A stretch of DNA of 55,950 bases, taken from Fibrobacterales bacterium (GTDB taxonomy: Bacteria; Fibrobacterota; Fibrobacteria; Fibrobacterales; JAOPTW01). Shown here in pieces: positions 4,138-36,530 of the stretch (its first letter is position 1; every line of letters starts with the position of its first letter). The translations under genes were made by a program, and so were the position numbers. The stretch lies in contig JAOPTX010000040.1 in assembly GCA_051532055.1 (NCBI GenBank), forward strand, positions 1 through 55,950, read 5' to 3'. Under the pieces are notes generated by a model, which saw only the letters and a program-made list of their open reading frames with translations, did no database searches and was not told the origin of the DNA.

Positions 4138-4164
4138 TGTACTCATATTGTTCGCAAGTGTAAA
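4138..4164 (+). promoter_or_regulatory. Conserved 27-bp upstream motif, copy 1
   Basis: TGTACTC ATATT GTTCGCAAGTGTAAA; TATATT at 4212, 47 bp downstream. Confidence 0.75.
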
Positions 4165-4361
4165 TTAAGAGCTTAAAAGCCTGTTTTTCTGTACTCATAT
4201 AATGATTAATATATATTGATGGGACACAACAATGCATCGTTCGTATTGATGGAATTATAGTGATAGGGAGCTGATTCAACACTCACTATTGCGTAAAGAA
4301 AAAAAGTTATAGCACTGAGCTGCAGGGCACACTAGGGGTAGTTTCTCATAGACTCAATACA

Positions 4362-4428
4362 GCTTCAATCAAGGTATGATTGAAGCGTTATAGAAGTTTG
4401 TCTATATAGAAGTTTGTCTATACAGAAG
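4362..4428 (+). repeat. 10-bp perfect inverted repeat followed by a 16-bp tandem repeat in the 5' leader
   Basis: GCTTCAATCA-aggta-TGATTGAAGC (4362-4386), then TATAGAAGTTTGTCTA twice plus a degenerate third copy TACAGAAG. Confidence 0.7.
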
Positions 4429-4443
4429 TATGCGAATAAATAA

Positions 4444-34725: not shown

Positions 34726-34828
34726 TTTGTTACCATCGTGAAAGCCCACAACTAAGGGTAATCCAATAGGATGCTTTTTATCATTCATCAGCAAGTACTT
34801 ACACGTCTTTTATAACGCAGAAACAATG

Positions 34829-36379
34829 TTATCTCCAACCCTCAACTACCTGACGCCCTTTTTCTATTGTCTCTTTAAGGGTGTTAAGAGCATTTTTCCA
34901 CTCTTTCGTTGTTAGGGCTCCTGTTTGAGGAAAGGTTCCCTGGTTGTCGGCACGCAGCGTTTTGTGAGCAGGTTCGATTTGTGCAGCCCATTCATCAAGT
35001 TTAGTATTCACTTGAGGGTAAACTTCATCAATGAGTTTATCAAGAGCGTCTTTGGCCTCAGGAAAACAGAGCCAATACTGTGCTATTTTGTTTTCACGAT
35101 GCTGTGAGTTACATGCTAATGCAGCCCGAGCCTCTTTCTCTACTTCAACTAAGCCTCCCCAAAACGGGGCCATTTTAGGGACATAGTCCGCATTATCCAT
35201 ATCCCAAGGAATGGTATAGAGTTTGCCAGTTAAAGTGTCGGCATACCAATATGAGTTATGTCCATCATCACGCACGAAGGGACTGTCCCAATGCATGATA
35301 GCCATAGAGGTGAGAACAGAACTCACTAGGGAAGAGACATCCATATGCTTTCGTAGTACAGCTGTTATACTCTTTGTTCCACTGGCCTCTAATATTTCAC
35401 CTTCAAGGGATTGCCAGATTTCATGTGTTGGACTTTCATCCTCATTAGTCTTCAATACATAATTGAGGCTTCCACTATTTGTCACCATATCCCACCGAAG
35501 AGGCATTATCTCTTTATAGACATTCCCTTCTCCATCCTTAAAACGATCGCGGGTAAACCTCCCATCGATATGCTCTACGTGAGTAAATAATCCGACACGT
35601 TTCCCGTTAATTTTAATCATCGCATGCACAGCTCGAGGTGCGATGCTTCCCATCTGTCGATGCATCCAATATGATAATCGTTCTTTCATCTGATCACGAT
35701 AAAAATGCATGTGATGAAAAATCAACTTCTTCATACCAAAGAACAATTGGTCTGGGTGGTTCTCGGTATTAAACTTTAGTTTCATCGAAAGTTTAATACA
35801 CGTTTTTTCTCCTTCAGGGCTCCCCAAGTCACCAGTAGTACAATCGGCCCAGGCTCCAAAGCTTCCTTTATAGCGAACCTGAATATCACGAATGGTATCC
35901 CCTTGAAAAACAAGGTGAGCATATTCATATGCCTCCATTTTTGGGGCTGCATCAAGCCGTGCCAATGCTTTTTCATCAATGATAATTTCATATGTTTTTA
36001 TGGTACCTGTTTGGTCAAATATAAAATCAAGATCGTGTCTGAGTTTATTGCGTTTGCTCAATGCAGCTCCTGAAGACAAATGTTCTTCACTAGATGAATG
36101 TATGTCTTCAGAGCTACTACGAACATCATGCAAACTACTTGGTGCCTCTACTGTATCAGCACTACTCATACTATAAATACTACTCGAACTCACATGTATG
36201 TCTGTAGGAATAGCGTTGTTAGTCTCACTACTTTCTACTTCAATAGCTTGAGTAACGCCTGCATTACTACTCATATCATTACTTGAATTATCAGAGTGTG
36301 TTGGTGACACGTTATCTGGCCCACATGCTGTTATTCCTAATAGAACCGTCAGCATTCCCCATGTTAATAAATAATTCAT
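34829..36379 (-). CDS. CotH-family kinase lipoprotein
   Basis: Lipobox GITA|C, Ser-rich linker, VRYKG, KLSMKLKF, MKERLSY, GLFTHVEHID and HWDS...HNSYWY...IPWDMD motifs. Confidence 0.88.
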   Translation of the reverse strand: MNYLLTWGMLTVLLGITACGPDNVSPTHSDNSSNDMSSNAGVTQAIEVESSETNNAIPTDIHVSSSSIYSMSSADTVEAPSSLHDVRSSSEDIHSSSEEHLSSGAALSKRNKLRHDLDFIFDQTGTIKTYEIIIDEKALARLDAAPKMEAYEYAHLVFQGDTIRDIQVRYKGSFGAWADCTTGDLGSPEGEKTCIKLSMKLKFNTENHPDQLFFGMKKLIFHHMHFYRDQMKERLSYWMHRQMGSIAPRAVHAMIKINGKRVGLFTHVEHIDGRFTRDRFKDGEGNVYKEIMPLRWDMVTNSGSLNYVLKTNEDESPTHEIWQSLEGEILEASGTKSITAVLRKHMDVSSLVSSVLTSMAIMHWDSPFVRDDGHNSYWYADTLTGKLYTIPWDMDNADYVPKMAPFWGGLVEVEKEARAALACNSQHRENKIAQYWLCFPEAKDALDKLIDEVYPQVNTKLDEWAAQIEPAHKTLRADNQGTFPQTGALTTKEWKNALNTLKETIEKGRQVVEGWR

Positions 36380-36503
36380 AGTCCCTCGTAAATTAGTATT
36401 CTTTTGAAATACATTTCTCTATACATCGCCCATCTTCTTTGGAAGGTTTAATATACTTTCCCATACTTCGAAATGGTGAGGTGTGATGGAGCTCTTCTGC
36501 TTT

Positions 36504-36530
36504 TTTACACTTGCGAACAGATCGAGTACA
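36504..36530 (-). promoter_or_regulatory. Conserved 27-bp upstream motif, copy 6
   Basis: Reverse complement reads TGTACTC GATCT GTTCGCAAGTGTAAA; TATATT begins at 36455 (48-bp gap); points to the CotH gene. Confidence 0.75.

Follow-up and report, generated by a model that had tools for sequence, protein, structure and literature searches.

Direct repeats spaced 10–11 bp apart are the typical form of OmpR/PhoB-family boxes, and in class I activation CRP sites lie at about -61, -72 and -83. Among the restriction-modification controller (C) proteins, work on C.PvuII describes both activation and repression, with the repressing operator overlapping the -35 (PMC2175313), and a second paper describes C-protein sites found by footprinting upstream of the proteins' own genes (PMC2632904). 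For TIGR02147 (Fsuc_second) proteins, literature searches made mostly without subscription papers or supplements found no paper on function. For the corresponding domain DUF4423 they found a single table row for one Bdellovibrio protein that gives no function, site or target; searches for Fibrobacter promoters and regulators returned nothing relevant, and no description of the motif treated here. This motif, 27 bp long, recurs upstream of genes for exported proteins in a contig of a Fibrobacterales bacterium (assembly GCA_051532055.1, contig JAOPTX010000040.1), analyzed over its entire 55,950 nucleotides and referred to below as the window. With moderate confidence, we read it as the operator of an autoregulated clade of TIGR02147 proteins that probably act as helically phased activators. 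The site, regulon and helix-to-motif correspondence for these proteins are proposed here.

In outline the putative circuit resembles that of C.PvuII: a predicted XRE-type head, proposed autoregulation, and a distal operator with a candidate second one over the expected -35. It differs from C-protein systems in size, operator symmetry and partner gene, and would not be placed among them. The clade protein has 271 aa in three regions, a winged helix and a C-terminal dimer region being added to the head; its operator would consist of direct heptamer repeats with a period of 11 rather than two symmetrical C-boxes; its partner is a lipoprotein gene, not an endonuclease gene; and it is proposed to act on about 16 unlinked genes, from a site 25–50 bp further upstream. 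Like class I CRP sites, the motif would lie upstream of -60 (centered at about -74 or -85 if TATATT occupies -12 to -7), with a one-turn bimodality and no -35 match, but it is a tripartite direct repeat and the fold of the candidate protein is unrelated to that of CRP. Heptamers repeating 11 bp apart are also reminiscent of OmpR/PhoB boxes, although none is found at the seven local OmpR-type genes and the motif stands well upstream of the -35.

The 27-bp motif

The genome (G000; 5.17 Mb, 39.6% GC, the window being its entire contig C40), whose closest proteins in databases carry Fibrobacterales labels, was searched with the pattern of the original prediction, allowing up to four mismatches, and with an iterated position weight matrix (PWM) at a threshold of at least 20 bits; permuted patterns and column-shuffled matrices served as the respective controls. 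All seven copies predicted in the window are present at the positions and on the strands given for them (Table 1), the six strong ones with 0, 2, 1, 3, 3 and 0 mismatches and the weaker one at 21485 with six; the next best matches in the window have seven. Genome-wide there are 20 pattern matches (0.6 for permuted patterns) and 27 PWM sites (0.6 for shuffled matrices), with a clear score gap below 23 bits. The PWM consensus, TGT[AT]C[TG]C-N4-[TC][GA]TTC[GT]C-N4-GTAAA, comprises two heptamers with a period of 11 bp (the direct repeat TGTWCKC-N4-YRTTCGC) and a third element, GTAAA. Together with the spacing analysis, it supports the earlier description of a non-palindromic operator with sub-repeats 10–11 bp apart. 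In 13 promoter pairs shared with a comparison genome of the same genus (G001), identity is 94% at core positions and 68% at variable ones.

The window is 1.1% of the genome but contains 7 of the 27 sites (P about 1e-8), which makes it a hot spot of a small regulon. The very large genome-wide regulon first expected is not borne out, since window density predicts about 650 sites. The motif is best read as a real operator with a small regulon, most likely that of a TIGR02147 clade. Rfam at gathering scores gave no match within the window, nor did blastn of the 4100–4300 promoter against plasmids. Two related occurrences were seen elsewhere: a variant one base shorter precedes a gene at C15:165757 (+), which from our own reading we take to be ExbB/TolQ-like, and the full 27-mer is found upstream of an OmpA-like gene in one genome (L001, G035) of f4, a family of Fibrobacter-type relatives.

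Promoter geometry

Gaps of 47, 59, 45, 47, 48 and 48 bp between the six strong copies and a TATA[TC][TC] hexamer, as originally described, were found again. Over both genomes, a TA[TC]A[TC][TC] box stands at a set distance from 42 of 60 sites (20 of 27 in G000, 22 of 33 in G001, where promoter and -10 counts are drawn from fetched loci only). The distance from the first base of the motif to the start of the box is 72 (3 promoters), 74 (7), 75 (24), 85 (3) or 86 (5) bp, which supports the fixed helical phase that had been proposed, at 72–75 or 85–86 bp; the chance rate of TATA[TC][TC] at six such offsets is 1.7%. TATATT is read as the local -10 because in tandem intergenic DNA it has the strongest sense bias of any hexamer after poly-T (416 vs. 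245), while TATAAT is unbiased (238 vs. 254). It would then be the -10 element of this lineage, and the site would span about -87 to -61, or be shifted upstream by one turn. A match to TTGACA in at least five of six positions occurs in none of the 42 promoters.

Regulator promoters have an additional feature. In all six of those with a -10 box, an extra half-site is found at +50 to +53, over the expected -35; it sits 21–25 bp before the -10 box, an overlap with the -35 that assumes TATATT to be the -10. Among 36 non-regulator promoters there are just two such half-sites, only in promoters of the 4138 type. In f4, a half-site occurs 61–64 or 73–74 bp after the repeat and 22–25 bp before the -10. 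Apart from the known sites and a single sister paralogue, other 11-bp repeats located 75 bp before a -10 gave no genome-wide peak. The possibility that the motif is an element for an alternative sigma factor was rejected on our reading of its distance.

A TIGR02147 clade as the candidate binder

The candidate binder matches TIGR02147 at 273.3 bits (cut-off 50) and DUF4423 (PF14394) at 85 bits (cut-off 30). There are 52 TIGR02147 matches in G000, and copy numbers range from 40 to 57 in the four Fibrobacterota genomes counted; clusters are also found in Bdellovibrionota. In a tree of 51 of the G000 proteins (one 32-aa fragment was omitted), five paralogues form a single clade with 100/100 support, no member of which is encoded in the window. 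A strong site lies within 135 bp of four of the 51 genes, all four in this clade (hypergeometric 2e-5), and the remaining 46 paralogues score at most 4.8 bits. Two of the four sites are forward, one is forward across a 22-bp contig-end overlap, and one is reversed. The fifth member has an 18-bp repeat 86 bp before its -10 box, kept in G001, and G001 shows the clade–site association at three genes. The gene following the clade regulator encodes a lipoprotein with a CarboxypepD_reg-like domain; coupling to a lipoprotein gene within 60 bp is seen for 35 of 46 scorable TIGR02147 genes. Clade and site numbers run in parallel: G000, with five copies, has 22 pattern matches, and f4, with a single copy, has matches at the level of controls; G001 has 33 matches, and 59 other genomes of the order have 0–2 each, like their own controls.

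Other lineages were compared because duplication alone could give the clade pattern. A clade orthologue is present in single copy in 63 of 66 f4 genomes, and 111 loci yielded 88 distinct 250-bp upstream sequences, of which 84 contain YGTWC-N6-YGTTC (0.1% in shuffles). The repeat is found on the sense strand only and with period 11, none occurring at periods 8–10 or 14, although 10 also match period 12. Two genomes of another order keep TGTTC..CGTTCC upstream of the orthologue, and in four of five genomes searched with a 20-bp version of the repeat, the orthologue promoter is the only exact match. A metagenome scan for clade loci found one short contig, without the motif. Overall, these patterns in sequence make it quite probable that the motif is the DNA-binding site of the TIGR02147 clade. 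The conserved upstream neighbor of the f4 orthologue was considered as a binder and ruled out in G000, where tblastn found no match to it.

A candidate small RNA was seen divergent from the regulator gene, at L158:3390-3465 (-) and in 79 of the 88 f4 upstream regions, as a conserved GGATGGGATTGGGTGTTC block followed by a reverse-strand hairpin and U-run (z -2.5, no Rfam match); a second stretch folded for it missed the hairpin. Loci L167-L169, L174, L175, L181 and L163 bear titles of unrelated taxa but are of Fibrobacterales type, and are probably mislabelled or misbinned.

Recognition helices and other paralogues

More telling, the sequence of the 11-bp repeat appears to track the recognition helix across relatives. 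Diverged clade relatives pair YLLL with TGTTTAT (two genomes), YSSI with TGYTCAA (two) and YSRI with TGTAAA; further pairs are STGLYLDI with CGTACY and FISEV with TGTTCAT. In G000, three motifs of other paralogues recur in intergenic DNA in 8 of 8 (0.9 expected), 8 of 10 (1.1) and 5 of 6 (0.6) cases, where 11% would be expected, the match to each paralogue's own promoter being by construction as the patterns were chosen from those promoters. Four weaker patterns are intergenic in 18 of 97, 10 of 27, 17 of 76 and 12 of 39 cases, and another shows no enrichment (4 of 53). Nine promoters of non-clade paralogues were compared with G001; seven keep some or all of their repeats and two do not. A family-wide rule of 11-bp repeats was rejected, perfect repeats being found in 8 of 30 paralogues in G039 and 10 of 30 in G068, no more than at other periods; what is left is a smaller excess of exact repeats that contain YGT, present in 20 of 50 regulator promoters and 18% of 1502 others.

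Two further mini-regulons were noted (Table 1). AAGCGTACYS-AAAGCGTACY is tied to the TIGR02147 paralogue C3:92833, whose G001 orthologue has no upstream copy, and pairs of CGTAGCCTAA 31 bp apart are tied to the paralogue C30:42740.

Predicted structure

A model of the clade protein was built from 137 sequences, with a predicted local distance difference test score (pLDDT) of 91. Residues 7–90 resemble the XRE-type domain 3pxp (Z 8.3, root-mean-square deviation (rmsd) 3.0, 81 residues aligned), with XRE-type chains matching residues 6–90 at Z 7.5–8.3, and residues 109–187 resemble the winged helix 2p4w (Z 8.9, rmsd 3.1, 75 aligned). Foldseek gave no match at E ≤ 0.001 for either model. The homodimer scored 0.80 (best control 0.00), a mark attained by 20 of 30 solved pairs and one of 23 single chains, with runs agreeing in at least 96% of contacts at a pLDDT of at least 85; confident dimer contacts involve residues 120–147 and 188–271. 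As modelled, then, each subunit would begin with an XRE-like helix-turn-helix, continue with a winged helix and end in a dimerization region. With heads held on linkers in this way, repeats in direct or inverted orientation, or half-sites far apart, could be read.

Target genes

All six strong window copies point at genes with signal- or lipoprotein-like N-termini, as first noted. Pfam agrees with the VWA, GH5, IgGFc-binding and CotH labels given to the products, while "Ig-like" (4444) and "SGNH-like" (21688) are unconfirmed, with no Pfam or NCBIfam match. The 24104 copy overlaps the start of the longest open reading frame (24114), and the ATG at 24264 is the likely start. Absence of the motif before cytoplasmic genes holds in the window but not genome-wide, where it precedes cytoplasmic TIGR02147 genes; it is mostly found before genes for exported proteins, but not exclusively, since it also heads genes for probable regulators. 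Of the 20 G000 promoters with a -10 box at a set distance, 16 lead to genes with signal-like or lipoprotein N-termini and three to TIGR02147 genes, and one runs off its contig. Six targets are CotH lipoproteins, among 29 CotH matches in the genome; others are VWA lipoproteins, carbohydrate-active enzymes (CAZymes) and large surface proteins. By a crude signal-peptide heuristic, 14 of 18 scored targets are positive; the genome-wide rate is 49% (p = 0.012), and that of the window is 19 of 29 (p = 0.2). The secretome bias is thus modest, real relative to the genome but not relative to the island in the window. The G001 homologue of the protein encoded at 4444..6891 lies directly upstream of a clade TIGR02147 gene. 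The window also encodes, at 52767-55307 (+), a secreted M66 metalloprotease with TagA and StcE beta-sandwich domains and no motif upstream.

Proposed mechanism and alternatives

As proposed, the XRE heads would read TGT[AT]C[TG]C half-sites 11 bp apart on one face of the helix, plus GTAAA as a third element. From a position at about -87 to -61, or a turn upstream of it, the bound clade protein would activate TATATT promoters that have no -35 box. Its targets would be about 16 genes for lipoproteins or secreted proteins and the regulator–lipoprotein operons themselves, where the extra half-site over the -35 would give feedback, as in restriction-modification controllers. If the clade binds, activation seems fairly probable; target promoters with the distal phased site alone fit recruitment of polymerase from upstream.

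Several points weigh against this. The site at the C2 paralogue is reverse-oriented, and the C146 paralogue lacks GTAAA. A -10 box at a set distance is absent for 7 of 27 G000 and 11 of 33 G001 sites, and the absence of a -35 is not significant relative to background (23 of 552). The clade association within one genome could stem from duplication of gene and promoter together. Four of the 88 f4 upstream sequences have no repeat pattern, and as all 88 are kin, they amount to a footprint rather than 84 independent events; GTAAA is confined to this genus, so the relatives leave it unexplained. Fold Z-scores near 8–9 are middling, and Pfam HTH_3 (E 7.8e-4) is below its cut-off. The helix–motif covariation draws on some seven motif types that were compared by eye; the G001 orthologues of C3:92833 and C9:43551 have no upstream repeats, and perfect 11-bp repeats are not a trait of TIGR02147 as a family.

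The same clade might instead bind and repress, by looping the distal repeat to the -35 half-site or by wrapping DNA, until released by an inducing signal. XRE-type and ArsR-type folds are mostly repressors, the fold matches of the model are of such types, and the half-site over the -35 is conserved at regulator promoters both here and in f4. We consider repression unlikely nonetheless: in 34 of 36 non-regulator promoters there is only the distal site, upstream of -60 and in fixed phase with the -10, a phase that a repressor should not need, and a repressor would usually overlap the core promoter.

It is also improbable, in our estimate, that another conserved regulator binds the motif, for example a winged-helix protein of OmpR/PhoB type, the TIGR02147 genes being only targets in its cascade. 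Direct repeats 10–11 bp apart are the textbook shape for such a protein, G000 has seven genes of this type, and a symmetric dimer has no obvious fit to a direct repeat. However, the motif is absent from the 400 bp scanned before the approximate starts of all seven, and no site of at least 19 bits lies on their contigs. In addition, motifs differ between the TIGR02147 paralogues of a single genome, each tracking the helix of its own paralogue, so that one further regulator would be needed for each paralogue.

Mobility of the motif itself, as the end of a mobile element or a site-specific recombination site moving promoter-plus-gene cassettes, appears very improbable, although the setting invites it. 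Positions 4044-41880 of the window form a variable island whose modules map to five or more contigs of G001, the backbone around it being collinear with G001 contig C76, and attC-like arrays are present in the genome. The motif begins with TGT, like many transposon ends, and homology between G000 and G001 often starts at its first base (0, -1, -1, -4, -11, -18), with other genes upstream. Flank-vs.-flank blastn, however, showed no common element body, its sole matches being self-overlaps, a weak one upstream and short similarities between three pairs of promoters; upstream flanks in the other genome run on without the motif; and the f4 repeat lies within a locus of conserved neighbors. No paired inverted end with target-site duplication was seen at the junctions viewed, although no systematic search was made. 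None of the attC-like repeat families of G000 includes the 27-mer, which stands at the head of genes rather than closing them. In a survey of 147 homology-block ends in 816 kb of fetched G001 DNA, stop codons and the borders of unrelated operators delimit blocks equally sharply, and the junctions have no sequence in common. The end of a miniature inverted-repeat transposable element (MITE) and a recombination site were both rejected on these grounds, and the motif is best read as the outer functional edge of a portable promoter. The spacers at 24131-24184 and 36450-36503 are 83% alike over 41 bp before unrelated genes, which indicates that promoter modules have been copied between genes; in G001 the CotH gene lies behind a 21374-type promoter.

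An SOS box bound by LexA can largely be dismissed: the core GTWC-N7-GTTC has the shape of the alphaproteobacterial box described in PMC3091678 (GTTC-N7-GTTC), but the lexA and recA promoters lack the motif (best -5 and -9 bits), recA has a TGC-N-C-N4-G-N-GCA box, and no repair gene is among the identified targets. With flanks and both promoters checked, the motif is most likely neither a MITE end nor a LexA box, the kinds of known element that the original prediction had allowed might account for it, nor does it look like an autoregulatory site of OmpR type. The G000 lexA (C15) and recA (C37) promoters both carry elements of TGCAC/TGCTC type, presumably similar to the Fibrobacter LexA box.

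Features and block edges

Modules are shuffled gene-precisely between G000 and G001, many blocks of 80–95% identity ending a few bases from a stop codon or operator edge. Conserved operators at block edges (Table 1) include GTCAACA repeats, which we take to be Pho-box-like, the palindrome TGCTTACCTAGGGTAAAC (twice) and TGTGAAT..ATTCACA; an inverted GTTCAC..GTGAAC stands at a TIGR02147 promoter, also a block edge. Arrays of attC-like repeats occur at C108:9827-10357, C3:134408-134538, C47:69992-70065 and other places in G000, with tyrosine recombinases nearby at C108:7960 and C46:14387, and are probable integrons; none was found in the window.

Table 1. Positions of motif copies, candidate promoter elements and target genes in the window, and of other operators elsewhere in G000
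Feature	Position	Strand	Remarks
Operator copy, 27 bp	4138..4164	+	39 bits; promoter resembles regulator-gene promoter on contig C106
Extra half-site TGTACTC	4190..4196	+	+52, over expected -35
Candidate -10 TATATT	4212..4217	+	74 bp from motif start
Target, 815-aa predicted exported protein	4444..6891	+	No Pfam/NCBIfam family
Target, lipoprotein with acidic double-disulfide repeats and VWA domain	11795..13423	-	Pfam VWA
Candidate -10 TATATT	13464..13469	-	86 bp, one helical turn longer
Operator copy, 27 bp	13529..13555	-	35 bits; back to back with 13585 copy
Operator copy, 27 bp	13585..13611	+	33 bits
Candidate -10 TATATC	13657..13662	+	72 bp
Target, secreted GH5-FN3-CBM protein	13690..15567	+	Pfam
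Operator copy, 27 bp	21374..21400	+	34 bits
Candidate -10 TATATT	21448..21453	+	74 bp
Weaker copy	21485..21511	+	24 bits; 3' of 21448 -10 box, lacks its own -10 box
Target, 531-aa predicted exported protein	21688..23283	+	No Pfam/NCBIfam family
Operator copy, 27 bp	24104..24130	+	34 bits
Candidate -10 TATATT	24179..24184	+	75 bp
Target, large IgGFc-binding-domain protein	24264..29174	+	Pfam; likely start 24264
Target, CotH-kinase-domain lipoprotein	34829..36379	-	Pfam
Candidate -10 TATATT	36450..36455	-	75 bp
Operator copy, 27 bp	36504..36530	-	40 bits; spacer similar to that of 24104 promoter
Second mini-regulon sites (G000)	C3:92669, C3:222163-237966, C16:72363, C42:25176, C121:2935, C144:6951		
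Third mini-regulon sites (G000)	C30:43630, C30:41493-41524, C31:57995-58026, C39:16699-16730, C42:53224		
Block-edge operators (G000)	C47:78343, C103:7117, C42:11435, C42:155017, C3:237877, C8:34091		

Implications

A wider generalization is doubtful as a whole, but can be put as one joint claim: TIGR02147 proteins may form a large group of paralogue-specific activators in which the helix-to-heptamer code can be read and the coupled lipoprotein controls each protein across the envelope, and portable operator–TATATT modules may let genes for surface proteins and CAZymes shuffle under new signals, in the role played in Bacteroidota by extracytoplasmic function (ECF)/anti-sigma and hybrid two-component systems. 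For the TIGR02147/DUF4423 family, the candidate site offers a concrete operator, a list of targets, a promoter geometry and a set of helix–motif pairs, making its function testable. Orthologue and operator are conserved in Fibrobacter-type relatives, which are cultured, harmless cellulose degraders in which little is known about gene regulation.

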